Origin: Kofleriaceae bacterium
GTDB taxonomy: Bacteria; Myxococcota_A; Polyangia; Haliangiales; Haliangiaceae
Length of the DNA stretch: 37,563 bases
Assembly: GCA_044230415.1 (NCBI GenBank)
Contig: JBGARE010000001.1
Location: 561,195-598,757 of the forward strand
Direction of reading: 5' to 3'
Part shown: one piece after another, positions 3,584 through 37,302 of the stretch
Layout of the letters: each line of letters begins with the position of its first letter
Position numbering within the stretch: the first letter of the stretch is position 1
Notes under the pieces: generated by a model
Seen by the model: only the letters and a program-made list of their open reading frames with translations
Databases searched by the model: none
What the model was told of the DNA's origin: nothing
Program-made: the position numbers and the translations under genes

Positions 3584-4874
3584 GGAGGCCGGCGCGATTC
3601 ATCATCTTGTAGATCGTCATGCGATCGACATCGGCAGCGCGAGCGGCGGAGGAGATGTTGCCGTCGTGCGCGTCGATCAGCTCCGTGATGTATCGGCGCT
3701 CGAGCTCGTCGATGATCTTCCTCTTCGCCTCTTTGAACGGCAGCGAGACATCGAGCGACGTCGGACCGCTCGACCACTGGCGCTCCATCTCGGGGAACTT
3801 CGACAGCGTGATCGCTTGTTCGATCGATCCGCGGAGCTCGCGCACGTTGCCGGGCCAGGGCTGGCGCTCGGCCCACTCGACGAAGCCCGGAGGAAGCGGG
3901 CCGCCGCCGAACCGCTCGACGAGGTGCTCGATCAGCGGCGCGATGTCCTCGCGGCGGTCGCGCAGCGGCGGCAGGTGCACGCGCGCGACGGCGATACGGA
4001 AGTACAGGTCGGCGCGGAACGCGTCGCTGTTGACCTGTGCGGCAAGGTCGCGATTCGTGGCGGCGACCAGGCGAACATCGCACGAGATGGGCGTGACGCT
4101 TCCGATGCGACGGATCTGGCGTGTCTCGACGGCGCGCAGCAACTTCGGTTGGACATCGAGCGGAAGCTCGCCGATCTCGTCGAGGAAGAGCGTTCCGCCG
4201 TGCGCGGCTTCGAACACGCCGGGGCGCGCGGAGATCGCGTTCGTGAATGCTCCGGCCTCGTGGCCGAAGAGCTGATCTTCGACGAGCTGTGCGGGGATCG
4301 CGCCGCAATCGAGGATGATGAACGGTCCTGCACTTCGCGCGGAGCCGTGGTGGATCGCTTGGGCGGCGAGCTCCTTGCCCGTGCCGGTCTCGCCGGAGAT
4401 GAGGACCGTCGCATCGGTGGCGGCCAATCGCTGGAGCACCTCGAACACGCGGCGCATCGCTGGACTCTCCCCGACGAAGCCACCGAGGCGGCGCGCCCCG
4501 GAGATCGGAAGCTCGACGGACTCCGCGAGCGGCTCGAAGCGGATCGTGTTGTCGCCGATGCCGATCGTCGTGTTCGCGACGAGGAATCCCTCGATCACGC
4601 GCATGCCCGCGACGTGCGTCCCGTTCGTCGAGCCGAGGTCGCGCAGGCGATAGCCCGTGGACTCGAGCCGGATCTCGGCGTGGAGCGCCGAGGCGCGTCG
4701 ATCCGTGAGCTTGAGATCCGCGTTCGCGCGCCCGATCACGATCGAGGGCGAGCGAAAGACCTTCACGAGCCCGCGATCGGGTCCGCTGACGACTTCGAGT
4801 CGACACGCACGAACGTGCAGCGAGTCACCTTCGGCGCGGCGCTTCACCCAGGTCCCGGTCTCGAGGTCCGTCAC
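3558..4874 (-). CDS. Sigma-54-dependent transcriptional activator (bacterial enhancer-binding protein) with an N-terminal FHA domain and a C-terminal Fis-type HTH
   Basis: FHA-like N-terminus (VIGRANADLKLTD...STNGTHV). AAA+ sigma54-interaction domain with Walker A GETGTGKE, the GAFTNA (GAFTGA-type) loop, ESQLFGHE and the arginine finger region. C-terminal DNA-binding HTH (ISSAARAADVDRMTIYKMM). Confidence 0.9.
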   Translation of the reverse strand: MTDLETGTWVKRRAEGDSLHVRACRLEVVSGPDRGLVKVFRSPSIVIGRANADLKLTDRRASALHAEIRLESTGYRLRDLGSTNGTHVAGMRVIEGFLVANTTIGIGDNTIRFEPLAESVELPISGARRLGGFVGESPAMRRVFEVLQRLAATDATVLISGETGTGKELAAQAIHHGSARSAGPFIILDCGAIPAQLVEDQLFGHEAGAFTNAISARPGVFEAAHGGTLFLDEIGELPLDVQPKLLRAVETRQIRRIGSVTPISCDVRLVAATNRDLAAQVNSDAFRADLYFRIAVARVHLPPLRDRREDIAPLIEHLVERFGGGPLPPGFVEWAERQPWPGNVRELRGSIEQAITLSKFPEMERQWSSGPTSLDVSLPFKEAKRKIIDELERRYITELIDAHDGNISSAARAADVDRMTIYKMMNRAGLRGGSKSSE

Positions 4875-4904
4875 CAGGGCGAGCGTATCTCGGAACGCAC
4901 GCGT

Positions 4905-9577: not shown

Positions 9578-10281
9578 GCCGACGCGACCACCGCGCGCTG
9601 CGCCACCGCGAGCTCGCGAATGCCGATCGCCGCGAGATCGAGCATCGCGTTCAGCTGACCGCGATCGAACGTCCCGTGCTCCGCGGTGCCTTGCACCTCG
9701 ATCAGCGTGCCGCTCTCGTCACCGACGACGTTCATGTCGACATCGGCCTTGCTGTCCTCGACGTACGGCAGATCGAGCACGCACTCGCCGTTGACGATGC
9801 CCACGCTGACCGCCGCGACCGGCGGCATCAGCGCGCTGCGATCGGCGAGCGTGCCCGCCTTGACGAGCTTCTCGATCGCGAGCGCGAGCGCGACCCACGC
9901 ACCGGTGATCGACGACACGCGCGTGCCGCCGTCCGCGCACAGCACGTCGCAATCGACGTTGATCGTGCGCTCGCCTAGCTTCTTCAGATCCACCGCCGCG
10001 CGCAGCGAGCGGCCGATCAGGCGCTGGATCTCCTTGCCGCGTCCGCCCGGATCGCGCTTGCTGCGCGTGTGCGTCGAGCGCGGGAGCATCGCGTACTCCG
10101 CCGTCAACCACCCCGAGCCCTTGCCCTTCATCCACGCGGGCACGGTCTCCTCGACGCTGGCGGCGCACAGCACCCACGTATCGCCGAGCTTGATGAGCGC
10201 GGATCCCTCCGCGTGCTTCTGGAAGTGCGGGATGATCTCGAGCGCACGGAGCTGATCGGGACGGCGGCCATCGAAACGCAT
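9574..10281 (-). CDS. rph: Ribonuclease PH
   Basis: [12 protein letters not shown]...[14 protein letters not shown]...[22 protein letters not shown] is the typical RNase PH sequence. Start taken at the ATG at 10281 (235 aa). The 547-aa ORF in the track is an upstream over-extension. Confidence 0.92.
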
Positions 10282-10323
10282 GGCGCGAACCCTACCGCAA
10301 AGCCTCTGGGCTAGGCTGATGGC

Positions 10324-11148
10324 ATGACCGCATCGCCGATGGCCGCGCCGCTGACATGGGACCTCGTCTCGGCTGCCTACAGCCAAGAGGTCGTGCCGTT
10401 GTTCGAGAACTTCGCGCGCGATGCATTGCGGCTCGGCGCCGCACCTGCGGGCTCGCGCGTCGTCGACGTGGCGTGCGGCCCGGGAACGCTCGCGTTCCTC
10501 GCGGCGGCGGCCGGGCACCGTGTCGACGCGCTCGACTTCTCGCCGGAGATGCTGTCGTACCTCGAGGCGCGCCGCGAACGCGAAGGCCTCGATCGCATCA
10601 CCGCACAGCACGGCGACGGCCAAGCGCTCCCCTACGACGACGCCACGTTCGGCGCGGGGTTTTCGATGTTCGGCTTGATGTTCTTCCCCGATCGCGCGGC
10701 GGGCTTTCGCGAGCTGCGTCGCGTGCTCGTGCCCGGTGCACGCGCGGTGGTCTCGAGCTGGCCGCGGCTCGAGGACAACCCGATCTTGAGCGCGATGTTC
10801 GCCGCGATCCGCACGGCGCTGTCCTCGATCCTTCCGCCCGGCGCCGCGCAACCGAGCGCCGCGGAGATGCCGCTCTCGACGGAGGCGCTGTGCACCGCCG
10901 AGATGTCGGCGGCGTTCGCAGACGTTCGTGTTCATCGCATCGTCCACGTCCAACACGCGGACTCGGCCGACGCGCTGTGGGCGAACCTCAAGCGCACGAT
11001 GGCGCCGATCGTCCTCATGCAGCGCAACCTCGGGGACAAGTTCGCGTCCGTCGATGCCGCGGCCAACTCCGCGATCCGCAACGCGACCGGCCCGGGGAAG
11101 GTCGAGGTCCAGCTCCCGGCCTGGCTGACCGTCGGCGTCGCTGCGTAG
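10324..11148 (+). CDS. Class I SAM-dependent methyltransferase
   Basis: Motif [14 protein letters not shown], post-I acidic residue (VDALD) and a motif II region. Divergent from rph. Confidence 0.8.
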
Positions 11149-11215
11149 TCGCGCACGTGCCCCGTGTAGTCGTGGTGTCGTCGGCGATCGCGGCCCCCAC
11201 CGATACCGTCGGATC

Positions 11216-11662
11216 ATGCGCTCGGCCTCGATCTCCGCTCCGCCGATCTACATCCCGGTACAACGCATCGCGTCTGTCACCCCCGACTCGCCCATCTATG
11301 GCACCGGCACCACCGGTGCCTTCATGGCTTTCAGGGACGCCTGGATCGAGGACATGATCCTCGACGAGGGTCCGACGAGCCTCGATCTCTCGCCGTTCGA
11401 CGAGATCCACGCGTTCGCGGAGCTCGACGACGACGGCACGCCGTACACCGACGTCGATCCCGTCGCCGAGATCATCGAATCGGACGTCATCGAGATGATG
11501 GACGAGATCGATGCCGCGCTCGACGCGCTGTGCGCCGCGCTCGACGACCCAATCGACGACCACCGCATGTACCTCGTCGACCGCGACGGCAACCGCACCT
11601 ACTTCGATAGCGGCACCGCGCTGCACGCCGCCGTTCGCTCCCAGCCGCGCCGCAGTCACTAG
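11216..11662 (+). CDS. Hypothetical acidic protein (an alternative start ATG at 11324 is plausible)
   Basis: ORF in the coding strand gap. Strongly acidic (D/E-rich) with a C-terminal [19 protein letters not shown] segment. No recognizable domain. Confidence 0.3.
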
Positions 11663-11708
11663 CGTCGGTTTTTCGCGAGCGCCCCGGCGATCGGCCTACA
11701 ATTTCGGG

Positions 11709-12797
11709 GTGCCTCGCCCGACCTTCACGATCGAGCTCGCGTCCGACGCGAGCTTCGCGAAGGACCTCGCCGCGGGCGGTGTGTTCGTGGCCGCACGAGG
11801 CTTCTGCGTGCTCGACGAGATCGATCTCGTGGTGCGCGGCAACGCGGGCGAGCTGTGCCTGCACGCGCGCGTGGTCTACATCGATCCCGCCACCGGCTGC
11901 GGGCTCGAGCTGGTCGGTTTCGGGCCCGCGATCAAAGAGCAGCTCGCCCAGCTCGCATCCACGCCGGCGGAGATCGCGGTGGTCGCCGCCACGAAGCAGC
12001 GCCGCCAACGCGTGCTCACGTCGCGCCCCGGTCAGAAGCGCAGCCCGGACGCGCGGGACATCGCGATGCTCGAGCTCGACGATCTCGCAGACACCGACGG
12101 CATCGTCGCGGATCTCGTCGAGCTCGACGACGATCGCGAGCTCGACGACGGCGAGGCCGACAACGACGCGATCGACAACCTCGACGGCCTAGAAGCCGAC
12201 AGCGAGCTCGGGACCGCCGGCGATGGCGACGACGAGACCGCTGGCGATCGGGACTCGAACGATGATGACGGCGCGGGGACCGACGACGAGGCCCGACGCG
12301 ATGGCGACTCCGCGTCAGCCGATGCCGCTGGCGTGCGCGATACGCCGAACCTCGATGGCGAAGGCACGCTCCCCGATGGACAACGCGCGCCGCTCAACGC
12401 GCTCGATCGGCTGCGCGGAATTCCGCTCGCGCAGCAGCTCAAGGTCGCGCGTGGGCCGAGCGCCTCGGAGCGCATGGCGGTCGAGCGCATGTACGGCAAG
12501 AACGTGTGGGATGCGCTGCTGCGCAACCCCGGGCTCACCGCACCCGAGGTCGCGCGCTTGTCGCGCCTCGGAACGCTGCCGCGCGTGTTGCTCGAGGTCA
12601 TCGTCACCAACAACACGTGGCTGCAGGTCCCCGAGGTGCGCCGCGCGTTGCTCTCGAACCCGCGGCTCGGCACGGATCAGATCACGCGCGTGCTGCGCCT
12701 TCTGCCCAAGCACGAGCTGAAGCTCGCTTCGACGATCCCCGCGTATCCGCACTCCGTGCGCAGCCTCGCGAAGAAGATGATCAAAGACAACGAGTAG
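11709..12797 (+). CDS. Hypothetical protein with a possible N-terminal PilZ-like beta-barrel, an acidic low-complexity linker and a repeat-containing C-terminal domain
   Basis: Candidate GTG start at 11709, 7 nt downstream of TACAAT (11697-11702). GFCVLDEIDLVVRGNAGELCLHARVVYIDPATGCGLELVGF resembles the second half of PilZ domains. Long D/E-rich linker. C-terminal repeats (NPGLTAPEVARLSRL / NPRLGTDQITRVLRLL). The track ORF 11511-12797 over-extends upstream into the neighbouring ORF. Confidence 0.4.
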   Translation: MPRPTFTIELASDASFAKDLAAGGVFVAARGFCVLDEIDLVVRGNAGELCLHARVVYIDPATGCGLELVGFGPAIKEQLAQLASTPAEIAVVAATKQRRQRVLTSRPGQKRSPDARDIAMLELDDLADTDGIVADLVELDDDRELDDGEADNDAIDNLDGLEADSELGTAGDGDDETAGDRDSNDDDGAGTDDEARRDGDSASADAAGVRDTPNLDGEGTLPDGQRAPLNALDRLRGIPLAQQLKVARGPSASERMAVERMYGKNVWDALLRNPGLTAPEVARLSRLGTLPRVLLEVIVTNNTWLQVPEVRRALLSNPRLGTDQITRVLRLLPKHELKLASTIPAYPHSVRSLAKKMIKDNE

Positions 12798-12801
12798 GGC
12801 G

Positions 12802-14028
12802 CTACTCGATCGTGACGGCGACGCGCTCGGCGATGCCGGACTTCGCGGTGCTCGGCGCTTCTTCGGCGTAGATGCGCGCGGCGTGGCGGCATGCATCGTC
12901 GAACTTCTTCTCGCACAAGATGCGAACACGCAGCCAGAGTGCGTCGGCGTGCTCCGCGCGGTTCTTGTGCGCGAAGCGGCTCATGTACATCTCGAGCGTC
13001 TTGAGTGCGGCGGCGTTGTCCTTCAGCGCGGTCTTCTGTAGGTACGCGATGCTGTACATCGCCCGCGACGCGTCGTCGCCGCGCCCCGTGCCGGCGGTCT
13101 CGCGATGCTTCGCGATCGCGTCCTTCGAGTCGACGATGCCCAGGTCGAGCGCGGGCTGCATCGGTGCCAAGAGGAGCGCCTTGTGGAGATTCTCCTCGTA
13201 CACGACGACCTTCTTCTTGCCCGGACGTCCGCTGCCTTCGTCGCTGCTGGTGGATCCGTTCGATCCGGCGCTCGATCCATTCGATCCATTCGGGCCATTC
13301 GGGCCATTCGAGCCACCGGCGGAGCCCGCGTGCGGAGGATCGATCGGCATCTCGATATCGGTGCGGTCGAGCGGCGCGACGACGTTCGAGCCCGCCGCCG
13401 CGACCTGCGCCGACGGGAGATCCGCGATCGCGATCTGTCCGCGCTTCGTGGTCCACGCGTGGCCGATCGCGACGCGCACCGCCGACTCGGGCTGCGTGCG
13501 CTTCTTCACCTCGACCACACCCTCGGTGACGATGACGATCACCTCGCCGGTCCCTTCGCCGAAGTCCACGGAGAATCGCGTGCCGACGACGACCACGTCG
13601 GTCTCGCCCGCGCGCACGATCAGCGGCGGCCGTGTGCCGCGCTTGCCGACCTCGAGGTCGACCTTGCCGCGCGACATCTCGACGAGCACGCCGCCCGCGG
13701 GGCGGGTCACCACGAACTTCGTGCCGGGCTCGCTCGCGATGCGCGCATCGCCGATGTCGAGCTTCGTGCCCTCGGTCGTGTCGACACGGATCGGCTCCTC
13801 GACAGCGACGACGTTCACGTCGGGTGCCGTCGACGCGCCGAGCCTCCAGCTCGCGAGCCCGATGGCGACCATCGCCGCGGCCATGACCGCGAACCCGAGC
13901 CACTTGGTGCCCCGCGCGAGCGCGGGCTTCTGTGCCGCGTCGCTCGCGGCGATCACGACGTTGCGCTCGATGTTCGTCATCCGCTCGTCGGACAGCGGCT
14001 CGACGGGAATGCGATCTCGCAGAGTCAT
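12802..14028 (-). CDS. Anti-sigma factor, FecR family: cytoplasmic anti-sigma N-terminus, one TM helix, periplasmic FecR domain, Asn/Gly/Ser-rich linker and a C-terminal helical (TPR-like) domain
   Basis: TM helix WLGFAVMAAAMVAIGLASW. FecR-like block KFVVTRPAGGVLVEMSRGKVDLEV...VVVVGTRFSVDFG...VIVIVTEGVVEV. Its start overlaps the stop of the upstream ECF sigma gene by 4 nt. Confidence 0.8.
   Translation of the reverse strand: MTLRDRIPVEPLSDERMTNIERNVVIAASDAAQKPALARGTKWLGFAVMAAAMVAIGLASWRLGASTAPDVNVVAVEEPIRVDTTEGTKLDIGDARIASEPGTKFVVTRPAGGVLVEMSRGKVDLEVGKRGTRPPLIVRAGETDVVVVGTRFSVDFGEGTGEVIVIVTEGVVEVKKRTQPESAVRVAIGHAWTTKRGQIAIADLPSAQVAAAGSNVVAPLDRTDIEMPIDPPHAGSAGGSNGPNGPNGSNGSSAGSNGSTSSDEGSGRPGKKKVVVYEENLHKALLLAPMQPALDLGIVDSKDAIAKHRETAGTGRGDDASRAMYSIAYLQKTALKDNAAALKTLEMYMSRFAHKNRAEHADALWLRVRILCEKKFDDACRHAARIYAEEAPSTAKSGIAERVAVTIE
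13255..13320. repeat. Imperfect 9-bp tandem repeats (ccattcga/gg variants) encoding the (GSNGPN)n linker of the anti-sigma factor
   Basis: Read directly: ggatccgttcgatccggcgctcgatccattcgatccattcgggccattcgggccattcgagcc. Confidence 0.6.
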
Positions 14029-14663
14029 GGCGCCTCCTTGTCGACGCTATCGAACGCGACGACGTCGCCCGTCGGAACCAAGAACTCCGCGAGGACGGGA
14101 TCCGTCGCGGCCTGCGCCTCGATGCGCTTGCGCGCGCGCCACACTCGCAGCTTCGTCGCGGTCACCGACGAGCCGACGAGCTTCGCCGTCTCGGCCAACG
14201 AGCGGCCATCGATCTCGTGCAGCGTGAACGCGAGGCGCGCCGCGGGCGAGAGTTCGTCGAGCACGGCGTACAGGCGCTTCACGCCATCGCGCGCCATCTG
14301 GCGTCGCGTGCCGTGCGTGCCGCTATCGTGGATGCCGATCGCAGCTCCTGCTTCGTCATCGAGCTCGTCGGTCTGCACGCGGCGACCCTTCTGCGTCAGA
14401 TAGCGATACGCGACGCGCACGCTCACGCGATCGACCCACGTAGCCAAGCTCGCCTCGGCACGCCAACCGCGCAGCGATTGGAACACCTGGAGAAACGCCT
14501 CTTGCAGAAGATCATCCATGTCGCGGTTCGAGCCGAGCACGCGGAACAGGCACGCGTGCACGCGGTTCTTGTGGCGCCGAAACAGCTCGCGCGTGGCAGC
14601 AGGCTCGCCGGTCAAACACCGGTCGACCAGGAGCACGTCCTCCACGTAGGCCACTGCTGTCAC
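14025..14663 (-). CDS. RNA polymerase sigma-70 factor, ECF subfamily
   Basis: Region 2 (LLQEAFLQVFQSLRGWRAEASLATWVDRVSVRVAYRYL) and region 4 HTH (LSPAARLAFTLHEIDGRSLAETAKLVGSSVTATKLRVWRARKRI). Immediately followed by, and overlapping, its anti-sigma gene. Confidence 0.9.
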   Translation of the reverse strand: MTAVAYVEDVLLVDRCLTGEPAATRELFRRHKNRVHACLFRVLGSNRDMDDLLQEAFLQVFQSLRGWRAEASLATWVDRVSVRVAYRYLTQKGRRVQTDELDDEAGAAIGIHDSGTHGTRRQMARDGVKRLYAVLDELSPAARLAFTLHEIDGRSLAETAKLVGSSVTATKLRVWRARKRIEAQAATDPVLAEFLVPTGDVVAFDSVDKEAP

Positions 14664-14697
14664 TCAGACCTCATAGTGAACGACAACGCCTCGCGGG

Positions 14698-15849
14698 TTA
14701 CAGGCGCTTCGAAGAACGTGCAACTCGGCGAGATCGCTTGGATTGCGATCCATCGCGGCCCTCGTCGAGCGGACCCGGGCACACCTCGCGCAGTTTGCAG
14801 CGCGCGCACTCGCTGCCGCTCCACACGCGCTCGAACAGCGCCTGCACCTGATCGAGGAGCTGGGCGTCGTCGGTGATCATGCCGAGCTCGAAGTTCCGCT
14901 TGCCGCTGCCCTTCGCGCCCAACCCCGCGCCGGTCCAGTTCGCGCTGCCGAGATAGAGCAGCGAGCCGTCGACGATGACGGCCTTCATGTGGACGCGTGG
15001 ACATCGCGCGAGCTCGAGCCCGCGCAGCAATCGCGGATGCGCGGCGAGCTCCTCGCGAAACGGACCGCTCGGTAGCTCGGCGTGCAGTAGGCGCAGCTCG
15101 ACGCCGCGCGACGCGAGCTCGTCCAAGCGCGAGACCATCGAGACGTACGGCGTTTGCTTGCGCGAGCGACGCGCGCCCGGTCGCGCGCTGCCTTCGACCA
15201 TCATGCCCTTCACGTTGGCCGTCGCGATCCACACGCTGGTGTGCGCGGCCAACACGGCGGCGATCACGCGATCGTAGTGCGCGCGTCCGCCGACGATCTC
15301 GATGGTCACGGGCCGCGCGGGCAGATGCAGATCGAAGGGCTCGCTCTCGACGACATACGCATCGTCCGCCCGCTGCTTCGCCGATCGCGACGGTCCGCGC
15401 AGCGCGCGCTCGACCCGCGCGAGCGACGCTTCCGCGGAATCGGCGGTCGCCTTCGCCGTTCGCGTCGGCATGGCGCGGATCTTCTTCGCGACGCGCGCGA
15501 GGGAATCGGCGGCGACGAGCCCGTCGTTCGATGCGCGCGTGGCAGCGAGGTCATGGTTCGACGCCCGCGATGGCTTCGCGGCAAGGTCATTGTTCGACGA
15601 GGGCGATGGCTGCGCAGCGAGGTCATTGTTCGACGAGGGCGATGGCGCAGCGAGGTCATTGTTCGACGAGCGCGATACACGTTTGCTCGCGACGTTCTTC
15701 TTCCCCACGTTCTTCTTCGCGGTGTTCTTCTTCGTGGCGGTCTTCTTCGCGGCGGTCTTCTTCGCGGCGGTCTTCTTCGCGACCACGTCCGTCGGCGAAG
15801 TTCGCTCGTCGGATCCGTTCGTCGTATCGCGATCGACGTCGTCGCTCAC
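14698..15849 (-). CDS. Phospholipase D / Nuc-family protein with a single HKD motif, and an N-terminal Lys/Ala-rich histone-H1-like tail plus SSNNDLAA tandem repeats
   Basis: HMKAVIVDGSLLYLGSANWTGAGL is an HxK(x)4D(x)6GSxN catalytic motif, present once, as in Nuc-type dimeric endonucleases. N-terminal (KKTAA)n and (SSNNDLAAxPSP)x4 repeats. Candidate GTG start at 15849 overlaps the SDR stop in a GTGA junction. The track ORF (to 16113) over-extends into the SDR gene. Confidence 0.72.
   Translation of the reverse strand: MSDDVDRDTTNGSDERTSPTDVVAKKTAAKKTAAKKTATKKNTAKKNVGKKNVASKRVSRSSNNDLAAPSPSSNNDLAAQPSPSSNNDLAAKPSRASNHDLAATRASNDGLVAADSLARVAKKIRAMPTRTAKATADSAEASLARVERALRGPSRSAKQRADDAYVVESEPFDLHLPARPVTIEIVGGRAHYDRVIAAVLAAHTSVWIATANVKGMMVEGSARPGARRSRKQTPYVSMVSRLDELASRGVELRLLHAELPSGPFREELAAHPRLLRGLELARCPRVHMKAVIVDGSLLYLGSANWTGAGLGAKGSGKRNFELGMITDDAQLLDQVQALFERVWSGSECARCKLREVCPGPLDEGRDGSQSKRSRRVARSSKRL
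15534..15783. repeat. Two in-frame tandem repeat blocks inside the PLD-family gene: ~33-36-bp units x4 (15534-15669) and 15-bp gcggtcttcttcgcg-type units (15693-15783)
   Basis: Read directly: ...gaggtcattgttcgacgagggcgatggc... repeated; ...gtcttcttcgcggcggtcttcttcgcggcggtcttcttcgcg.... Confidence 0.7.
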
Positions 15850-16796
15850 GTCGGGAAGCTCATCCCGAGCGGCGGCGTGGCGACGCAGTGGCCGCCATCG
15901 ACGACGAGCACGTGGCCCGTCACGTACGCGGCCGCGCGCGAGCGCAGGTAGACCGCCGCGGCGGCGATCTCGTCGATCGCGCCGAAGCGCCCCGCGGGGA
16001 TCGCGGCCGTCATCTTCTGCGTGACCTCGCCGGGCGCGAGTCGCTTCATGCCCTCGGTCTCGGCGATGGGGCCGGGCGCGATGCCGCACACGCGGATCCC
16101 GAACTGCCCCCACTCGACGGCGAGGTTCTTCGTGATCGCGTCGACGCCCGCCTTCGCGGCGGAGGCGTGCACCTGCAGCGGCGTGCCGTGATAGTGGAGC
16201 GTCGCGCTGATGTTCAGGATCAGCGCGTCGCGTGTCTTCGACAGCTCTTCGAACGCGGCGCGTGCGGTGTTGAACGTACCGAGGAGATCGATGTTGATCA
16301 CGGTGGCGAAGCCGTTCGGCGACAGCGCCGCGGCGGGCGCGAGGAAGTTTCCGGCGGCGCCGTTGACGACGGTGTCGAGCTTGCCGAACTTCGCGACGGT
16401 GGCGGTGATCGCTCGCTTGATCGCTTCGGGATCGCGAACGTCGGCGGCGATACCGATCACGTCGCGGCCCGCGGCGGCTGACAGCTCGCGCGCGGTGACG
16501 TCGAGGACATCTTGCTTGCGGCTGACGATCGCGACGTCGGCGCCGAGTCGCGCGTAGGCAGCGGCGATGCCCCGGCAGATGCCGGTGCCACCGCCGGTGA
16601 CGAGGACGACATGGCCGGCCATGGCATCGGGGCGGAAGACATCGAGAGGGTTCGGCGGAGATGCGGGCGTCGGCATGTATCCGGGCATCATGCCTGCGGT
16701 AGTTCCGCGCTGCGAAAAATCGGAAACCAACTCGCCGGGTCGTTGTCTAGTGCCTCGAACCCGACAGCGCTGCTTGCTCACCGCGAGCGCGCTCAT
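15846..16796 (-). CDS. Short-chain dehydrogenase/reductase (SDR) family oxidoreductase, 2,4-dienoyl-CoA / enoyl reductase-like
   Basis: VVLVTGGGTGICRGIAAAY (TGxxxGxG Rossmann motif), NGAAGNF, and a Tyr/Lys catalytic region. The likely true start is near 16691 (MMPGYMPT...), which would leave a ~120-bp divergent promoter region to the next gene. Confidence 0.85.
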   Translation of the reverse strand: MSALAVSKQRCRVRGTRQRPGELVSDFSQRGTTAGMMPGYMPTPASPPNPLDVFRPDAMAGHVVLVTGGGTGICRGIAAAYARLGADVAIVSRKQDVLDVTARELSAAAGRDVIGIAADVRDPEAIKRAITATVAKFGKLDTVVNGAAGNFLAPAAALSPNGFATVINIDLLGTFNTARAAFEELSKTRDALILNISATLHYHGTPLQVHASAAKAGVDAITKNLAVEWGQFGIRVCGIAPGPIAETEGMKRLAPGEVTQKMTAAIPAGRFGAIDEIAAAAVYLRSRAAAYVTGHVLVVDGGHCVATPPLGMSFPT

Positions 16797-16813
16797 GTTC
16801 CGAGAGGATTTCT

Positions 16814-17197
16814 ATGCGCTCCATGACAGGTGCGCGATGGGCGACGTGCGCCCTCGCTGCGATGATCGCTGTTCCGTTCGTGGCTGCTTCGGACTCCAGT
16901 GCCGGCAGCAAGAAGTCGCTCGATGACTGCACCTCGTTCGAGCAGGTGGAGACGAGCGAAGAGGCGATGGACCTCACGATCAAGAGCACGTGCTCGATCC
17001 CGATCGACTGCTCGGTGTCCTGGCGCGTGGTCTGTGCGCCTGACTCGAAGAAGCGCCGCAGCACGCACCGCGGAGCGGCGAAGATGCAGTTCCCGACGGT
17101 CGATACGAAGTCCGCGCAGGCTTCTGCCGCAGTTTGCGGGGATGACCCGTGGGTCCTCGACTCGATCAACTGGGCCTGCGAACCCAACAAGGACTGA
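16814..17197 (+). CDS. Small secreted Cys-rich protein (hypothetical)
   Basis: N-terminal signal peptide (ARWATCALAAMIAVPFVAASDS). 8 Cys in ~100 mature residues. No known domain. Confidence 0.5.
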   Translation: MRSMTGARWATCALAAMIAVPFVAASDSSAGSKKSLDDCTSFEQVETSEEAMDLTIKSTCSIPIDCSVSWRVVCAPDSKKRRSTHRGAAKMQFPTVDTKSAQASAAVCGDDPWVLDSINWACEPNKD

Positions 17198-17428
17198 ACG
17201 ATTCCGATTCGTTAGCGCCTGCGACAGCGATCGCAGTGCATATACAGCACCACGTTAGATCCAAGGCCCGCGTCCTGCGTCTGTAATCAGCGACCGACAA
17301 ATCGAGCTGCTGGTGACGAAGAGCTGAGCACGAAGTTAGTGCCCAAGCGCTGGGAATGCTTCCCCTTCGCCCCCATCTGTTCGCTCGTCGCCCCGCTGAT
17401 ACACACGTAGTATAAGGACCCAGGATCC

Positions 17429-18865
17429 ATGGTCGCACGCCAGGACATCGACGCGCTGCTCATCAGCGCCCTCTACGGCGAGCTCACGCCCGCTGAAGAG
17501 AAGAGCCTGGCGGCTCATCTCGAGTCGCATCCGGCTGACCGGACGGCGCTCGATGACCTGACCCGGGCTCGCGAGGTGCTTCACCAGAGCCGCATCCTCG
17601 CGTTCCAGTACGAGCCGCCACAGTCCGTGTCCGCCCTGCTGATGCAGGAAGCGTCGCGTCGCGCGCCCAAGAAGGCGTCCGAGGGCGAGGGCTGGTTCGC
17701 GCGGTTCGTGCGCTCGTTCGTGCAGCATCCCGCGATGGCCGCGGCCGCGATGATCTGCGTCGTTGTCGGCGCCGCATCGCTCGTGTCGCGCAACTCGGAA
17801 AAACAGTTCGCGGACACGCCCACCGTCGAGACGACGAAGCACACCGAATCTGCACCGGCCGTCGCCATGGAGGCGCCGACTCCGAACGCTGCGCCGGCTC
17901 CAGCGACAGGCACGGGAGACAACGCGGATCAATTTCGAGTCGCGCTCGCCGATGGCGAGAGCGAAGACAAGAGCGCCTACAAGAACGACGGCAAGGTCGA
18001 GGAAAAGAAGAAGGCCGAAGGGCAGACCAAAGCGCTGCCCGAGTCCGATCCGAACACAGCGTTCTACGACGCGAGCAACAACCGCAAAGGTGGCGACTCG
18101 CTGGCGACGAAGACCGCGACGGCCAAGCCGGACACGGGTCTCGAGCTGCGCCGTGGCGACGCGATGCCGAAGGACTTCGACGAGGCCAAGCCCGAACCGA
18201 CGCCCGCACCCACGGACGAGAAGCTCGCGAAACAAGCGCAGGCAGCCGCCGCGCAGAAGGCGAACAAGGCCGAGCGTCAGTTCGAAGCTGCCGACGACGC
18301 GATCGGTGGAGCTCGCGAGCAAGGATACGTCGCCGACAAACGCGAGGGCGCCGGCGCCGCCGGTGGCGTCGCACCGGGAGCAGCCGCACCGACCGCGCCG
18401 ACCACCACCGCGCAAGCGCCGCGCAATGCGGGGCCGCGCAACACCGTGGCACCCGCTCCGCCTCCGCCCACCAAGGCTGTTCCGCGCCAGGAGATCGCGA
18501 CGGACACCGCGACCGCATCGCGCGACCTGAAGTCGAAAGAGAAGGTCGCGAACGATCCGAACCTCGCGTGGGCGAAGGATCAACACGCGGCGCTCGTCAC
18601 CGCGGTACGCGCGAACAACTGCGGCCGCGCAGCAAGCATCGCACTGTCGATCGCGAATCGCACGCCCGCGTACTACGCGCAGAACGTCGAGACCGATCGC
18701 TCCGTGAAGGAGTGCATCGCGTACATCAACACCGAGCGCGAGAAGGACGCGGAACTTCGCGCATCGCGCGCGAAGAAGTCGCAGCTCAAGAATGCCGAGC
18801 CTGCCGCGCCGAAGCGCGCAGCGGATCAGCCGTCGAAGGCGACCTCGACGGACTCGTCGCGCTAG
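17429..18865 (+). CDS. Membrane-anchored protein with an anti-sigma-factor-like N-terminus, one TM helix and a long low-complexity (A/P/K/E-rich) periplasmic region
   Basis: N-terminal helical segment (DIDALLISALYGELTPAEEKSLAAHLESHPADRTALDDL) typical of anti-sigma N-domains. TM helix AMAAAAMICVVVGAASLV. No partner sigma gene lies adjacent. Confidence 0.45.
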   Translation: MVARQDIDALLISALYGELTPAEEKSLAAHLESHPADRTALDDLTRAREVLHQSRILAFQYEPPQSVSALLMQEASRRAPKKASEGEGWFARFVRSFVQHPAMAAAAMICVVVGAASLVSRNSEKQFADTPTVETTKHTESAPAVAMEAPTPNAAPAPATGTGDNADQFRVALADGESEDKSAYKNDGKVEEKKKAEGQTKALPESDPNTAFYDASNNRKGGDSLATKTATAKPDTGLELRRGDAMPKDFDEAKPEPTPAPTDEKLAKQAQAAAAQKANKAERQFEAADDAIGGAREQGYVADKREGAGAAGGVAPGAAAPTAPTTTAQAPRNAGPRNTVAPAPPPPTKAVPRQEIATDTATASRDLKSKEKVANDPNLAWAKDQHAALVTAVRANNCGRAASIALSIANRTPAYYAQNVETDRSVKECIAYINTEREKDAELRASRAKKSQLKNAEPAAPKRAADQPSKATSTDSSR

Positions 18866-25202: not shown

Positions 25203-26732
25203 TCACTTTGCCTCCGCGATGATCGCGAGTAGGTCGGCGACGACGGTCTTCGAACGATACGCGACCACGCGGCGATCGCTCGTGCCCACGCTGTCGAGGC
25301 TCGCGTCGCGAGTCTCGTCGACGACCAGCACCACCCGATCGATTCCGGCGGCGCGATACCGCGCCAGCTTGGCCGTCAGGTACTCGGCGGTCGCGAAGCC
25401 GACGACCTCCACGAACCAACATCGGGAACGATCAGGCTCGTTCCTCGGCAGCGCTCCGGCGATCACGCGAGGCGCGATCCGATCTGCCTCGGCGGTCATC
25501 TGCGATGCGAGCAGTGCGGCGAGGTCGGGGATCAGATCGCGATCGTCTTCCAGGTCCTCCTCGCGGTTCGCTCCGCTAGCATTGCGGTTCGCTTCGCTAG
25601 CATTGCGGTTCGCTCCGCTGGCGTTGCGGTTCGCTCCGCTGGCGTCGCGGTTCGCTCCGCTGGCGTCGCGGTTCGGCTCGGTCCCGGAGACCGACGTCGG
25701 ACCGACGAGCTCGAGCGCGAGATCGGGAAACAGCCGATCGCTTGCGTGCGCGATCGGCGGTGGATCGAGCTCGACGAGCACATCGCGCACGCTGCCCATC
25801 GCGCTCGCGATCTTCGCCGCGATGCTGGGCCTCCCTCGTTCGTTCGTCGGCGCGGGTGGCAACAGAGCCGGCGATGTCACGCGGAGCGCGGCCATGCCGT
25901 AGCCGAAGTCCGCGTCGATCTCGACGACAAATCGGTCCAGTCCGGACAACAACGGCACGACCGCACCGAGCGACCGGCCATAGACGCTCGTCTGGTGGAA
26001 CAACGAGAGCGGCCCGACGATGTCGATGATGGTGTGGTCGCGTGTGGCGAGGGCATCGCGCGTGGTGAGGGCATCGCATGTGGCGAGTGCATCGCGTGCG
26101 GCGAATGCATCGCGCGTCCGCGCGGCCGAGACGCGCACGAGGAGCCCGTAGCGTGCAGCGGTGCGGATCAGCGGGTGCGCGTTGCCCCAGGCGTGGATGC
26201 GCACGTGCTTCGCGCGACGAAGTGCCCGCTGGATTCGATCCACGTTCGCGTACGCGGCGAGCCGGTGCTCCTCGGGCCGGCCACTCGGCAGCGTGACCGG
26301 GCGCTCGTCCGCGAGATCGATCCACAGCAGGCTCTCGATCTCGGAGGGCTCGATGCCGAGCTCGTCGCCCGCCTTCGCGAGGCGCTGCGTGCGCGAATCG
26401 TCGTCGAGCGCCGGTTGGCCGAGGACCGCAGCGCGCACCTTGCGCGCGACCTTCGTGCGCTGCGCGCGGCCGTCCATCATGCGGCGCATCGCGACGAGGA
26501 TCGCGGCCACGCGGACTCCGCGGATCGGCGAGTGATCGAGGCGCTCGCGCAACACGCGCCAGGGTTGGCCCACGCAGCTCATGACGTGGTCGAGCACGAT
26601 GGCGATCCACGGCAGATCGGTCGCGTCGTAGAGGCGGACATCGGTGGCCGCGGCCGCTTCGAGGAGCTCGAGCTCGTCGGTGTCATCGTCGTCATGGTGG
26701 CTCGCATCGGCGCGTACATCACGCGCGATCAC
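25203..26732 (-). CDS. DUF790-family (Bax1-like) putative endonuclease, partner of the XPB-like helicase; carries two internal tandem-repeat expansions
   Basis: Its size (~509 aa) and its position immediately downstream of an XPB-type helicase with an ATGA start/stop overlap, plus the C-terminal region CWFVEVVGFATAEYLTAKLARYRAAGIDRVVLVVDE, are consistent with the DUF790/Bax1 nuclease family. The family assignment is from my recollection of the family, not from a search. Confidence 0.65.
   Translation of the reverse strand: MIARDVRADASHHDDDDTDELELLEAAAATDVRLYDATDLPWIAIVLDHVMSCVGQPWRVLRERLDHSPIRGVRVAAILVAMRRMMDGRAQRTKVARKVRAAVLGQPALDDDSRTQRLAKAGDELGIEPSEIESLLWIDLADERPVTLPSGRPEEHRLAAYANVDRIQRALRRAKHVRIHAWGNAHPLIRTAARYGLLVRVSAARTRDAFAARDALATCDALTTRDALATRDHTIIDIVGPLSLFHQTSVYGRSLGAVVPLLSGLDRFVVEIDADFGYGMAALRVTSPALLPPAPTNERGRPSIAAKIASAMGSVRDVLVELDPPPIAHASDRLFPDLALELVGPTSVSGTEPNRDASGANRDASGANRNASGANRNASEANRNASGANREEDLEDDRDLIPDLAALLASQMTAEADRIAPRVIAGALPRNEPDRSRCWFVEVVGFATAEYLTAKLARYRAAGIDRVVLVVDETRDASLDSVGTSDRRVVAYRSKTVVADLLAIIAEAK
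25562..25676. repeat. 21-bp in-frame tandem repeat x5 (unit ~cgctccgctggcgttgcggtt) encoding (ASGANRN)n inside the DUF790 gene
   Basis: Read directly from the sequence, lines 25561-25680. Confidence 0.85.
26036..26117. repeat. 15-bp in-frame tandem repeat x5 (ggcgagggcatcgcg variants) encoding (RDALA/TCDALT)n inside the DUF790 gene
   Basis: Read directly: gcgtgtggcgagggcatcgcgcgtggtgagggcatcgcatgtggcgagtgcatcgcgtgcggcgaatgcatcgcg. Confidence 0.8.
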
Positions 26733-28159
26733 GGCGCACCTCCGATTACCGCGTCGGTCATCGCAGCGCGGCGGCGCGTGACGTAGCCGACCTCGGTGGA
26801 GTCTTCGACGGCGAGCTCGTAGACGCGCGCGCGTTTGCCATCGCGCGGACGCAGCACGCGACCGATGCGCTGCACGTGACGCCGCGCGGAGGCGGTTCCG
26901 CCCACGACGATGGCCACGTCGGCGTCGGGGACATCGATGCCCTCGTCGAGGACTTGCGAGGACACGAGGACGGGCACGTCACCGGCGCGGAAGCGCGCGA
27001 GGGCGTCCGCGCGCTCGGCCTTTCCGATCTCGTGCGTGATCGGCTGGACGAGGAGCTCGCGCGCGATCGCGTACGCGGTGGCATTGTCGCCCGTGAAGAT
27101 CAGCGTGCGTTGGTTCGGGTGCAGGGCCAGCAGCTGGCGGAGAGCGGCGCGCTTGCCGCGCGGGTACGACAGGATCGAGCGATAGGTGCGCCAGGAGGCG
27201 AGGGCGTCGCGGCCCGCGCGGGATTGACGCGCATCGCGAACGAACTCGTGCCACGGGGCACCGCGCGACGTACGCATGTACGGCGCGTAGACCGAAGTGA
27301 AGCGCGCGCGATGCTCGCGATACAGAGCGCGCTCGTCACAGGAGAGTCGGATCGGGACCGTGACGAGCTGGTACTCGGAGAGCGCGTCGCCGGCGAGGTC
27401 GTCGATGGACAAGCTGTAGACCACGGGGCCGACGAACCGAGCGAGGCGCTCTTTGGTGGCGGGCTCGGTGGGTGGTGTCGCGGTGAGGCCCAGGCGGTAC
27501 GGCGCGACGAGCATCTCGAGGACTTCGGTCGGGCACATCGAGCCGAGGTGGTGGGCTTCGTCGACGATGACGAGACCGAAGCGATCGCCGATGCGTTGTG
27601 CCCACGAGATGGCGGAGGCAAACGTGGACACGGTGATCGGCGCGACCTGGTGTTCGCCGTCGCCGAGGCGGCCGATCGGGTACGACCACGCGGCGGCGAG
27701 GGTGCGCGCCCATTGATCGAGGAGGACGCGCGTGGGCACGAGCACGAGCGTGGACACCGCGAGTTGCGAGATCGCGGAGATGGCGGCGAGCGTCTTGCCC
27801 GAGCCCGTGGGAAGTGCGAGCACGCCGCGCCGACGGGCGGCTTCCCACTTCGCGAGCGCTTCGTTCTGGTACCAGCGAAGCGCTGGGAAGGACCAGGTGC
27901 CGGACAGCGGCGAGATGCGAGTCTCGTCCGATATTCGGACGGGCTTGTCCGCCAGTCGGACAATCAGCGACGCATAGTGATGCGCTGGAAGGCGCCACGC
28001 GAGCTGGTCCTGATCGCGAGTAGCTCCTGGAATCTGCGCGGGATCTTCGTCTGCAGACTCTGCTTCCAACACCAACGTTCCACGATCGAATCGAATACGC
28101 ATGCGAACGTGCGAAGCAACGGGCGTACCGAATCCGCGAGCGGGATCGCTTCGCAGCAC
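26729..28159 (-). CDS. Superfamily-2 DNA helicase of the XPB/ERCC3/Rad25-like type (ResIII-like N-terminal lobe)
   Basis: LRWYQNEAL (Q-motif region), motif I LPTGSGKT, motif II VIVDEAHHL, motif III LGLTATP, motif VI QRIGRVLR. N-terminal ~100-aa extra domain. The true start may be the internal Met at 28102 (MRIRFDRG...). Confidence 0.85.
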   Translation of the reverse strand: MLRSDPARGFGTPVASHVRMRIRFDRGTLVLEAESADEDPAQIPGATRDQDQLAWRLPAHHYASLIVRLADKPVRISDETRISPLSGTWSFPALRWYQNEALAKWEAARRRGVLALPTGSGKTLAAISAISQLAVSTLVLVPTRVLLDQWARTLAAAWSYPIGRLGDGEHQVAPITVSTFASAISWAQRIGDRFGLVIVDEAHHLGSMCPTEVLEMLVAPYRLGLTATPPTEPATKERLARFVGPVVYSLSIDDLAGDALSEYQLVTVPIRLSCDERALYREHRARFTSVYAPYMRTSRGAPWHEFVRDARQSRAGRDALASWRTYRSILSYPRGKRAALRQLLALHPNQRTLIFTGDNATAYAIARELLVQPITHEIGKAERADALARFRAGDVPVLVSSQVLDEGIDVPDADVAIVVGGTASARRHVQRIGRVLRPRDGKRARVYELAVEDSTEVGYVTRRRAAMTDAVIGGAP

Positions 28160-37279: not shown

Positions 37280-37302
37280 CCACCGACACTAGCGCGGCTG
37301 GG

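Follow-up and report, generated by a model that had tools for sequence, protein, structure and literature searches.

Nuc (Salmonella pKM101) and NucT (Helicobacter pylori) are single-HKD homodimeric endonucleases, and both are exported proteins. Zucchini (MitoPLD, PLD6) also carries one HKD domain per chain; it has its zinc site in a CCCH insertion elsewhere in the fold and is anchored by a transmembrane N-terminus. To our knowledge, the bacterial single-HKD enzymes described so far are exported nucleases, restriction or defence effectors, or toxins, and none of them is a core cytoplasmic protein.

In the 37,563-nucleotide stretch of Kofleriaceae DNA that was analysed (the window), a gene at 14698–15849, located like all features described below on the minus strand, encodes a 383-aa protein of the single-HKD PLD superfamily. 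The gene is read from a GTG codon at 15849–15847 to a TAA stop at 14698–14700, within a frame that is open over 14698–16113. Public assemblies contain a 100% identical protein (P0285) and a 99% identical one (P0001). With one HKD domain per chain, the protein resembles Nuc, NucT and Zucchini, although its identity to Nuc and NucT is 16–20% and its scores with the NCBIfam NucT equivalog models are 18–23 bits against cut-offs of 211–351. It differs from Nuc and NucT in a 6-residue Gly-rich insertion after GSANWT, in four invariant cysteines and in long basic extensions, and, unlike these exported enzymes, it has no signal peptide. In contrast to Zucchini, it has its cysteines around the HKD motif and carries a soluble polycationic repeat at the N-terminus. 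The protein has neither a transmembrane segment nor a lipid anchor, and no hydrophobic segment was present in it or in the homologue N-termini inspected. The protein is accordingly predicted to be cytoplasmic, given its charged N-terminus without a hydrophobic segment.

Catalytic core and four-cysteine signature

The catalytic motif H287-x-K289-x4-D294-x6-G301-S302-x-N304 is located at 14938–14991. Its sequence, HMKAVIVDGSLLYLGSAN (residues 287–304), is the sole HxKx4Dx6GSxN copy in the protein, and every motif residue was invariant across 119 homologues (alignment A1). A Pfam scan returned one PLDc_2 domain (residues 202–343, E = 2.2e-14, 53.8 bits against a cut-off of 27), and PLDc scored 28.1 bits against a gathering cut-off of 21.9. 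The predicted structure model has the fold of the PLD (HKD) superfamily, and its top structural matches in the fold comparison were nucleases. Neither the Pfam scan nor the model revealed a second HKD motif, even a degenerate one, because the remaining 167 amino acids are low-complexity. The catalytic core itself spans residues 168–365 (14755–15348), with about 60 invariant positions and a family identity of 59–86%; at about 195 aa it nearly equals the shortest orthologues, which are only 210 aa in total, which argues against a two-HKD architecture. It is followed by a short, basic and weakly conserved C-terminal tail (residues 366–383; 14701–14754; net charge +6, GC3 0.44).

With one PLD-like domain per chain, identity as a two-HKD phospholipid synthase or hydrolase (Cls, Pss or classical PLD) was ruled out. 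A sequence-only reading of this DNA had proposed a gene with one HxKx4Dx6GSxN motif and a Nuc-type rather than lipid-synthase architecture, and both proposals were borne out by the open reading frame, the Pfam search and the single PLDc_2 domain. These sequence features indicate a real gene that encodes a small phosphodiesterase of the Nuc/Zucchini type, probably a nuclease.

A signature of four cysteines, C283-X64-C348-X2-C351-X5-C357, brackets the HKD site, and all four were invariant in alignment A1. Cys283 (15001–15003), the proposed first ligand, precedes the catalytic histidine by four residues and was present in 105 of 108 distant full-length representatives. The other three, followed by Pro358 (14779–14808), correspond to the regular expression C..C.{5}CP, which matched 120 of 120 close homologues; the 2,5 spacing was found in 78 of the 108 distant representatives, and most of the exceptions look frameshifted. 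The four cysteines most likely hold a structural metal that would link the C-terminal segment with the strand of the active site, with zinc and [4Fe-4S] appearing equally possible from the sequence.

The same CX2CX5C spacing occurs in Dna2 and AddB, for which the iron-staple motif has been defined (PMC3439918). The protein matches the CXnCX2CX5C spacing of the AddB/Dna2/Cas4 iron staple across the active site, but the likeness is confined to motif spacing, given that the latter enzymes have an unrelated, metal-dependent PD-(D/E)xK fold. Membership in the iron-staple [4Fe-4S] nucleases was therefore rejected on account of the PLD fold, and the metal site would be analogous at most. By extension of this analogy, the signature in Myxococcota and other phyla might bind a [4Fe-4S] cluster, which would staple the HKD site of an enzyme for housekeeping DNA or RNA processing; in the source species, the rapidly evolving H1-like tail would tether the enzyme to the nucleoid. 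We regard this combination as doubtful. If true, the AddB/Dna2/Cas4 staple would have arisen again by convergence in a nuclease fold that works without a catalytic metal, and the protein would be, as far as we know, the first PLD-fold nuclease to contain Fe-S.

Repeats of the N-terminal extension

The 167-aa N-terminal extension has a net charge of +14, with its first ~100 residues predicted to be disordered and residues 108–167 predicted to be helical. It begins with an acidic cap (residues 1–23, MSDDVDRDTTNGSDERTSPTDVV; 15781–15849; net charge −5), the start codon of which overlaps the stop codon of the upstream short-chain dehydrogenase/reductase (SDR) gene (GTGA). The cap is followed by a Lys-rich pentad array (residues 24–57; 15679–15780; predicted disordered, pLDDT <50), such that the Lys/Ala repeat previously assigned to the N-terminus is present but does not form the terminus itself. 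The array is composed of three AKKTA units followed by TKKNT, AKKNV, GKKNV and then ASKR, with a net charge of +14 and a pI of 11.6. Tandem Repeats Finder detected its six KKxxx pentads at 15687–15781 (period of 15, 6.3 copies, score of 127), and three of the 15-nt units have one and the same sequence (GCGAAGAAGACCGCC). Four charge-neutral units of 11–12 amino acids, SSNNDLAA(x)PSP, occupy the next segment (residues 58–107; 15529–15678; predicted disordered) and were detected at 15542–15676 (period of 36, 3.9 copies, score of 189). The earlier description of a fourfold SSNNDLAA repeat, and of both arrays as nucleotide-level tandem repeats, was thus supported by Tandem Repeats Finder. That description had not included a third repeat type, two SLARVxxxxRxxPxRxAK units (residues 116–158), which together with a linker helix make up residues 108–167 (15349–15528). 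AlphaFold2 predicted helices at residues 109–125, 132–150 and 157–165, with pLDDT values of about 70–88.

Comparison with homologues separated the general from the species-specific features of the extension. The N-terminal extensions of homologues are net positive in 92% of cases (median of +6), and those of relatives are Arg-rich and 0–200 aa long in place of the Lys-rich array. The motif [STAG]Lxx[VLIA][ASTV]xx[LIM][RKAE] occurs in 0–6 copies in the extensions of the 119 homologues; a likeness of SLxxVAxxLR to SAP, HeH or Rho_N helices or to the first helix of a helix-turn-helix was considered and dropped, given that the hydrophobic residues are spaced differently and none of the models gave a match. 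Two close homologues (P0002 and P0005) carry SNDG(L/R)VAA units akin to the SSNNDLAA repeat, and region 15520–15828 has no counterpart in two related loci (L007 and L009). The histone-H1-like array was found, among the 120 top homologues, only in the source species' own protein cluster, and a sister species has a shorter Lys-rich stretch. Between samples, alleles of 378 and 383 aa differ by exactly one AKKTA pentad, which provides the variation in repeat number between strains that had been anticipated. From these sequence comparisons, the pentad array appears to be a recent expansion specific to the source species, and basic extensions, rather than the KKTAA array itself, appear to be the property of the family.

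In Chlamydia Hc2, Lys-rich pentads arise from nucleotide repeats and their copy number varies among strains (PMC2848022), and the joining of an H1-like module with a functional domain has been described before, in Streptomyces DdbA (PMC3643593). The extension shares with Hc2 tandem Lys-rich pentads that vary in copy number between strains. It nevertheless differs from Hc2, AlgP and DdbA in having only about six pentads, located behind an acidic cap and N-terminal to an enzyme, and the array is missing from almost all orthologues of the protein. When this tail and those of three homologues were scanned with Pfam at E ≤ 10, no known domain was recognised; the matches were composition-level or very short, namely HC2 (17 bits, cut-off 40) and E2F_TDP (covering 20 residues). 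The Burkholderia H1-like model hist_H1_lk_Burk scored 17.6 against 80. The histone-H1-like tail of the sequence-only reading therefore stands as far as its Lys-rich pentads are concerned, whereas its matches to the Hc2 and Burkholderia H1-like models are weak and compositional and it is not a feature of the family. Judged from sequence, the likeness to histone H1-like proteins is compositional. Built from slippage-prone in-frame repeats, the extension would probably be a tether that binds polyanions non-specifically and so keeps the enzyme concentrated at its substrate.

Genomic neighbourhood and conservation

The upstream gene (15846–16796, with the true start probably near 16680) encodes an SDR of the DECR2 type, as assigned with Pfam and NCBIfam (adh_short_C2, E = 6e-50). 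Its best match in the PDB was peroxisomal 2,4-dienoyl-CoA reductase (4fc6, E = 2.6e-63), and its orthologues are 268–273 aa long. The resemblance of this partner to an enzyme of fatty-acid beta-oxidation was counted against a nuclease. The SDR stop codon TGA at 15848–15846 and the GTG of the PLD gene lie in a 4-nt overlap. The co-translation that had been suggested on this basis gained support from conservation of the overlap start (xTGA) at 47 of 77 related loci. At 11 of the 77 loci the PLD gene is retained without a copy of the SDR gene, and the ECF sigma gene is still adjacent in 6 of these 11.

Downstream are an ECF sigma gene (14025–14663; Pfam Sigma70_r2 and Sigma70_r4_2; TIGR02937, 71 bits against a cut-off of 42.9) and, overlapping it by 4 nt, a FecR-domain anti-sigma gene (12802–14028; FecR, E = 6.7e-07, 30.1 bits against a cut-off of 24). 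The pair directly downstream is thus as had been described, except that the gap between the PLD stop and the sigma GTG is 34 nt and not 35. In this region lies a promoter-like element of the sigma gene, TGTAACC-N17-CACTAT (14673–14702), which ends 9 nt before the sigma GTG and the TGTAACC of which includes the TAA stop of the PLD gene. GTAACC was found upstream of ECF orthologues in 68 of 68 distinct regions in a fixed register, and the conserved form of the element is TGTAACC-N17-CACNAT. A search for GTAACC-N17-CACNAT across the whole window gave a single match, before the sigma gene, and a scan of 13900–17500 for generic sigma-70 promoters and terminators found nothing. The sequence thus indicates that a conserved, near-leaderless promoter-like element belongs to the ECF sigma gene itself and that the sigma/anti-sigma unit is separate from the PLD gene. 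Membership of the PLD gene in the ECF sigma regulon is unsupported, because the element occurs only once in the window, before the sigma gene.

The PLD gene is part of a conserved block comprising YggX, a PALP enzyme, SDR, PLD, ECF sigma, FecR, a PilZ-like gene, RNase PH and Ham1, which is common to most of 80 Kofleriaceae/Haliangiales genomes, and the gene is present in 409 species-level genomes as a single-copy, syntenic gene with the core identity given above. As a conserved syntenic core gene with a species-specific tail, it appears to be a vertically inherited core gene of Kofleriaceae/Haliangiales, and therefore housekeeping-type with an unusual appendage rather than a defence gene.

Beyond Kofleriaceae, gene contexts vary and include RmuC, an AAA ATPase, pseudouridine synthase, mraZ, McrBC, a DinG-like helicase and unknown genes; those in other Myxococcota were mostly uninformative, and no universal partner emerged from these neighbourhoods. 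A distant relative with the four-cysteine signature in Kiritimatiellia (~38% identical) lies in an McrB-McrC-YhcG-PLD operon, a Wallbacteria relative has a DinG-like helicase next door, and a relative in a Polyangia MAG has RmuC directly upstream. These nucleic-acid contexts were counted toward a nuclease. At none of the loci examined was a lipid-synthesis gene a neighbour.

Candidate functions and substrate

We found no characterised member of this PLD clade in the literature. Overall, we lean towards a single-HKD, Nuc-type homodimer that acts on nucleic acid, contains a metal bound by the four cysteines and a basic tether tail, and is the product of a core housekeeping gene. From the workings of the superfamily, a homodimer would be needed, since each chain supplies only half of the HKD active site, and a phosphodiester would be cleaved via a covalent phospho-histidine on His287 without a catalytic metal. 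The sequence suggests that the substrate is most likely nucleic acid, either DNA or RNA. Weak profile similarity was apparent to the nuclease families DrmC, NucT, MkoB and Zucchini. The best sequence match in the PDB, counted against a nuclease, was the two-HKD PLD of Serratia plymuthica (7e0m, E = 3.6e-10), the paper on which names a phospholipase D structure in its title and treats PLDs in the light of phospholipid modification (PMC8004604).

This match to a bacterial phospholipase D is one of several points in favour of a dimer that acts on lipid, as a cardiolipin or phosphatidylglycerol hydrolase or a transphosphatidylase, within a lipid-turnover operon with the dienoyl-CoA reductase. Such an enzyme would dock at the inner membrane face by its cationic tail and amphipathic SLARVAKKIR helices, and both cationic amphipathic helices and Lys-rich tails are able to bind anionic membranes as well as polyphosphate. 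MitoPLD was first reported as acting on cardiolipin, and PDB depositors name Zucchini/MitoPLD "mitochondrial cardiolipin hydrolase." The 4-nt overlap with the DECR2-like SDR gene is conserved at most Kofleriaceae loci, and the adjacent ECF/FecR regulator is of an envelope type. The SDR gene is nevertheless missing at 11 of the 77 loci, phospholipid-synthesis genes are not adjacent at the loci examined, the protein has no membrane segment or lipid anchor, nucleases are its top structural matches, and its distant relatives lie beside McrBC/YhcG, a DinG-like helicase or RmuC. We therefore consider a lipid substrate unlikely.

Pseudomonas AlgP, an H1-like protein, is targeted to polyphosphate granules, and by analogy the HKD dimer might act on polyphosphate or a nucleotide-linked substrate, with its H1-like tail directing it to such granules. 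The neighbourhood contains no polyphosphate gene, the structural matches to PPK had a poor rmsd, and a Lys-rich tail specific to one species cannot define the function of the family, all of which render this proposal improbable.

A defence function, as a DrmC- or Mokosh-type anti-phage effector or a competence or secreted nuclease, would fit the ~38% identical relative in the McrBC-YhcG operon as well as the best NCBIfam match, DISARM DrmC (NF038319), the alignment of which covers model positions 7–233 of 236, and the best PADLOC match, Mokosh MkoB. The DrmC score is, however, 37.5 bits against a curated cut-off of 133, and that for MkoB is a weak 34.8 bits; among the genes scanned there is no DrmA, DrmB, methylase or Mokosh helicase within 37 kb. 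A Pfam scan of the window's called genes other than a GC3-flagged ORF at 11129–11662 and the presumed RNase PH stretch at ~9700–10300 revealed no drmA, drmB, drmMI or Mokosh partners. The sole helicase found in the window belongs to an XPB/Bax1 pair about 10 kb away, with none of the MkoA type adjacent to the PLD gene. Membership in DISARM DrmC, Mokosh MkoB or NucT was rejected on the basis of the sub-threshold PADLOC and NCBIfam scores and the lack of DISARM or Mokosh partners in the window. Unlike DrmC and MkoB, the gene lies outside any defence island; a single-copy gene that is syntenic in 409 genomes with housekeeping surroundings stands in direct contrast to a variable defence island, and the protein has no secretion signal. 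A role in defence is thus very improbable, and the earlier suggestion of a defence or competence context rather than a housekeeping gene did not hold, given the conserved block, the profile scores far below cut-off and the missing partners.

The extension on which a tether would depend is, by all sequence indications, translated, because the overlap start recurs, the in-frame GC3 is 0.83 overall (0.94 in the pentad array) and natural variants are exactly one pentad apart. The start overlapping the SDR stop is kept across extensions of 0 to about 170 aa; at 11 further loci the same-frame position reads CTG or GTA and the start lies slightly downstream. The tail frame is open, whereas the two other sense frames hold 1 and 4 stop codons, and the repeat periods (15 and 36 nt) are multiples of 3. 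These observations also answer the objection that the true start might lie downstream of the repeats. Translation from Met127 or another internal codon, with the repeats as a long intercistronic or 5' region, would agree with the in-frame ATG at codon 127, but is highly improbable in view of the start conserved regardless of extension length, the GC3 and open frame, the motifs conserved at the protein level (SNDGLVAADSLARVAKK) and the identical start picked by independent gene callers.

For annotation, the PLD gene should be named neither a cardiolipin nor a phosphatidylserine synthase gene and should be left out of tallies of defence genes, and the neighbouring ECF sigma gene comes with a conserved promoter-like element of its own. 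This element and the four-cysteine signature of the clade are newly described here. The polymorphic Lys-rich tail provides a small natural case in which a catalytic domain gains a disordered polyanion-binding tail by repeat slippage. If the preferred explanation of a nucleic-acid-directed homodimer holds, the protein would represent an entirely uncharacterised clade of small HKD phosphodiesterases, cytoplasmic and strongly conserved, that is widespread in Myxococcota and scattered other phyla; the hallmark of this clade is an invariant, putative four-cysteine metal site beside the catalytic histidine. The substrate of this clade, once worked out, would supply a missing piece in the picture of the PLD superfamily.

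Layout and family of the PLD protein

The window has a G+C content of 67.7%. On its minus strand, an open reading frame extends from 16113 and terminates with the TAA at 14698–14700. The GTG at 15849–15847 overlaps the stop codon TGA of the upstream SDR gene (GTGA), and the PLD gene that starts there (14698–15849, minus strand) specifies a product of 383 amino acids. An HMM search detected a single PLDc_2 domain at aa 202–343 (Pfam; E = 2.2e-14; score, 53.8 bits; gathering cut-off, 27) and also recognised the active-site motif of PLDc (score, 28.1; cut-off, 21.9). The HKD motif, HMKAVIVDGSLLYLGSAN (aa 287–304), fits HxKx4Dx6GSxN exactly, confirming the single motif described in the sequence-only reading.

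The protein begins with an acidic cap (aa 1–23, net charge −5), followed by six Lys-rich pentads (AKKTA three times, TKKNT, AKKNV, and GKKNV; aa 24–57, net charge +14, pI 11.6), four SSNNDLAA(x)PSP units (aa 58–107), and a duplicated helical unit, 'SLARVxxxxRxxPxRxAK', with a linker helix (aa 108–167). The catalytic core (aa 168–365) and a short basic tail (aa 366–383) complete the chain. Tandem Repeats Finder identified 6.3 copies of a 15-nt repeat at 15687–15781, three of the units being identical, and 3.9 copies of a 36-nt repeat at 15542–15676, in agreement with the tandem repeats previously noted at the nucleotide level. Structure prediction by AlphaFold2 with a 119-sequence alignment yielded pLDDT values of <50 across nearly all of aa 1–100, 70–88 for three helices at aa 109–165, and mostly 80–95 for the core. 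The final 18 codons of the gene (14701–14754, minus strand) are unconserved and have a GC3 of just 0.44 versus 0.89 for the core; located directly before a promoter-like element of the sigma gene, they may be subject to constraint as regulatory DNA upstream of that gene and not as coding sequence.

More than 1,100 matches were obtained in a search of 5.8 billion proteins, and the core (about 195 aa) was 60–86% identical in proteins of Kofleriaceae, Myxococcales, and Haliangiales MAGs. The members found carry generic names only, these MAG proteins already being annotated publicly as 'phospholipase D family protein', and assigning the domain is routine. When one genome was scanned for each species, 409 were found to encode a relative, and the best 80 of these were nearly all Kofleriaceae or Haliangiales. 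Searching 1.84 billion cluster representatives with a profile returned 131 clusters at a threshold of E ≤ 1e-30 and 1,051 at one of ≤ 1e-3, among them 170- to 185-aa proteins of additional phyla (for example, Wallbacteria and Kiritimatiellia), and a second search seeded with a 51%-identical relative returned >4,000 proteins, many in MAGs labelled Myxococcaceae. Among solved structures, the top relative by sequence was the two-HKD PLD of Serratia plymuthica (7e0m, E = 3.6e-10), with Zucchini and NucT next at E values of about 0.01. The protein can be classed from its sequence within the PLD superfamily as a Nuc-type protein with a single HKD motif. Models for NucT and for the defence-system proteins DrmC (DISARM) and MkoB (Mokosh) scored far below their cut-offs, and membership of any curated equivalog family was therefore rejected.

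Translation and variation of the N-terminal tail

We scored the start overlap in 77 related loci with sufficient upstream sequence, in 63 of which the SDR gene lies directly upstream. An in-frame ATG, GTG, or TTG overlapping the SDR stop codon TGA was present in 47 of these 63, and this start stays fixed whether the N-terminal extension amounts to 0 or about 170 residues. The 4-nt overlap implies co-translation of the two genes, as originally proposed, and its recurrence upholds that proposal. GC3 in the frame of the tail is 0.83 (0.94 in the Lys-rich part), compared with 0.82–0.89 in neighbouring genes; the repeat periods of 15 and 36 nt are both divisible by three; and tail motifs such as SNDGLVAADSLARVAKK are kept at the protein level in homologues of 70–85% identity. 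The 90%-identity cluster of the protein comprises five members from independent assemblies, two of 383 aa and three of 378 aa. One 383-aa protein, P0285, is 100% identical to that of the window, and the 378-aa members lack exactly one AKKTA pentad, so that the comparison of repeat number suggested in the sequence-only reading did uncover variation. This difference is consistent with slippage across the three identical copies of the 15-nt repeat. Given the fixed start, GC3, in-frame periods, conserved motifs, and pentad polymorphism, we believe that the tail is translated from the SDR overlap. An internal ATG at codon 127 offers a start downstream of the repeats, but an untranslated tail is extremely improbable in light of these same observations.

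The Lys/Ala-rich, histone H1–like tail is present in this protein, as first described, but it is not family-wide. Among 119 close homologues, the extension measures 0–201 aa (median, 40), is net positive in 92% (median, +6), and is Arg-rich in all but one; only the protein of this species has more Lys than Arg together with a KKxxx array. The variable basic extension is thus the property of the family, with the H1-like appearance being a recent and local elaboration. In the protein P0002 of a sister species (86% identical), the Lys-rich stretch is shorter and is accompanied by two SNDG units, and window positions 15520–15828 form an insertion without a counterpart in the closest genomes (loci L007 and L009). 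A helical 'SLxxVAxxLR' unit, present in 0–6 copies per protein among the 119 homologues, matched no Pfam family. The tail resembles chlamydial Hc2 in consisting of Lys-rich pentads that vary in number, in that case between isolates (PMC2848022), and the protein resembles Streptomyces DdbA in that an H1-like module is fused to another domain (PMC3643593).

Genomic setting and the sigma unit

With PLD on the plus strand, most related loci share the gene order YggX, PALP enzyme, two divergent unknown genes, SDR, PLD, ECF sigma, FecR, PilZ-like, RNase PH, and Ham1. Human peroxisomal 2,4-dienoyl-CoA reductase (4fc6, E = 2.6e-63) is far ahead of any other solved relative of the SDR. The SDR-PLD link is not obligatory, given that the SDR is not adjacent in 11 of the 77 loci, six of which retain the adjacent ECF gene, and the pairing is lost outside the Kofleriaceae block.

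Downstream of PLD are genes for an ECF sigma factor (14025–14663, minus strand) and a FecR-type anti-sigma factor (12802–14028, minus strand). The sigma gene does lie directly downstream, with its GTG separated from the PLD stop codon by 34 nt rather than the 35 nt previously given. It is adjacent to PLD in 56 of the 77 loci, 0.7–3.7 kb farther downstream in eight, and absent in 12; in L004, the sole locus of the eight with genes listed, the gap is filled by an Omp85-family gene. Upstream of the ECF genes in loci L001–L085, TGTAACC-N17-CAC(G/T/C)AT precedes the start codon, ending 8–10 nt before it, and GTAACC was found upstream of 68 of 68 distinct ECF orthologues. Given that this promoter-like element is retained even when the sigma gene is kilobases from PLD, the sigma/anti-sigma pair seems to be transcribed separately as a near-leaderless unit, and the spacing suggests an autoregulated transcript. 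The window copy (14673–14702, minus strand) includes the PLD stop codon TAA within its −35-like TGTAACC box and is the single match in the window. The SDR-PLD pair has no such element upstream in the window, and the idea that PLD belongs to the ECF sigma regulon thus gained no support. Read-through from SDR-PLD into the sigma unit is possible, given that no terminator was detected in a scan of 13900–17500.

The PLD gene had been regarded as a non-housekeeping gene reminiscent of defence or competence nucleases. It is instead a single-copy, conserved gene in a housekeeping neighbourhood, and a Pfam scan of called genes across the 37.5-kb window revealed no DISARM or Mokosh partner. A defence role, to which the sub-threshold DrmC and MkoB matches point, is highly improbable against this background. 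Nuc and NucT are exported proteins. Export of the PLD protein is unlikely, because its N-terminus is charged and has no visible hydrophobic segment.

A distant Cys4-clade relative of 172 aa (about 38% identical) is encoded at the end of a McrB-McrC-YhcG(DUF1016)-PLD operon, with an adjoining Macro-domain gene, in a Kiritimatiellia MAG (L091–L094, 1080–5519); this is a defence-type setting. A Wallbacteria relative (L087, 3327–8176) has the gene for an unknown 550-aa protein on one side and that for a DinG-like helicase of 860 aa on the other, and RmuC is directly upstream of a relative in a Polyangia MAG (L080, 3345–5690). Such contexts mildly favour a nucleic-acid substrate clade-wide; they are no evidence that the window gene serves defence.

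Elsewhere in the window, the PilZ-like gene (11667–12797, plus strand; ORF 11511–12797) runs opposite to its counterparts in L007, L008, and L009, and wherever else it was identified among the related loci (59 of 86 Kofleriaceae/Haliangiales-type loci) it is co-oriented with FecR; this is a single-gene inversion between the methyltransferase and anti-sigma genes. About 10 kb from PLD is a bacterial XPB-Bax1 pair, with DUF790 (Bax1-type nuclease; 25203–26732, minus strand) and XPB/ERCC3-type helicase (26729–28159, minus strand) genes overlapping by 4 nt, the latter including the XPB damage-recognition domain. A 1,091-aa protein with two Pkinase-domain stretches (323–3598, minus strand) is encoded beside a sigma-54 activator (FHA, Sigma54_activat, and HTH_8; 3558–4904, minus strand), the listed ORFs overlapping. 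The gene at 33160–34671 (plus strand) very strongly matches the 5'-nucleotidase family PF05761 (E = 5.6e-156), familiar mainly through the eukaryotic cytosolic cN-II enzymes, and a type I phosphodiesterase/nucleotide pyrophosphatase gene is nearby (35672–37288, minus strand).

Proposed substrate and the Cys4 signature

The single HKD domain is complete and of the Nuc structural type, the gene is conserved as a core gene, and a signature of four cysteines is invariant. These residues (C283, C348, C351, and C357) are among about 60 invariant positions in the alignment, with C283 being four residues ahead of the catalytic His287. All 120 of the close homologues matched the pattern C..C.{5}CP. In a set of 108 distant representatives of full length, the upstream Cys was kept in 105, the exact 2,5 spacing in 78, and a C1–C2 distance of 64 residues in 81; most of the spacing exceptions look like frameshifted metagenome calls. 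A Gly-rich insertion, WTGAGLGAKGSGxRNFE, after GSAN is a second mark of the clade.

The enzyme would be a homodimer, because the active site requires two HKD motifs, as established for Nuc and Zucchini. Catalysis would proceed via phospho-His287, with the four cysteines holding a structural metal centre and the tail serving as a polyanion tether. Structural neighbours, weak profile affinities, the contexts of distant relatives, and a basic conserved surface make nucleic acid the somewhat favoured substrate. An anionic phospholipid, for which the SDR partner, the best PDB sequence match, and the amphipathic cationic helices speak, is doubtful, and another phosphate-rich ligand such as polyphosphate, suggested by PLD-fold PPK relatives and the Gly-rich loop, is very unlikely.

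In the libraries and papers searched, we found no description of a clade-wide Cys4 signature beside the HKD histidine, of the clade as a conserved cytoplasmic Myxococcota gene, or of the repeat-built polycationic tail. The [4Fe-4S] 'iron staple' of AddB/Dna2 nucleases has the spacing CX248CX2CX5C (PMC3439918), and in the PLD clade, too, a single Cys precedes the active-site motif and a CX2CX5C triad follows. The likeness is one of Cys spacing, however, with the folds differing, and a structural zinc site explains the pattern equally well. We therefore treat the resemblance as a lead rather than a finding and consider an Fe-S site here unlikely. If true, an 'iron staple' in a PLD fold would raise the interest of this clade.
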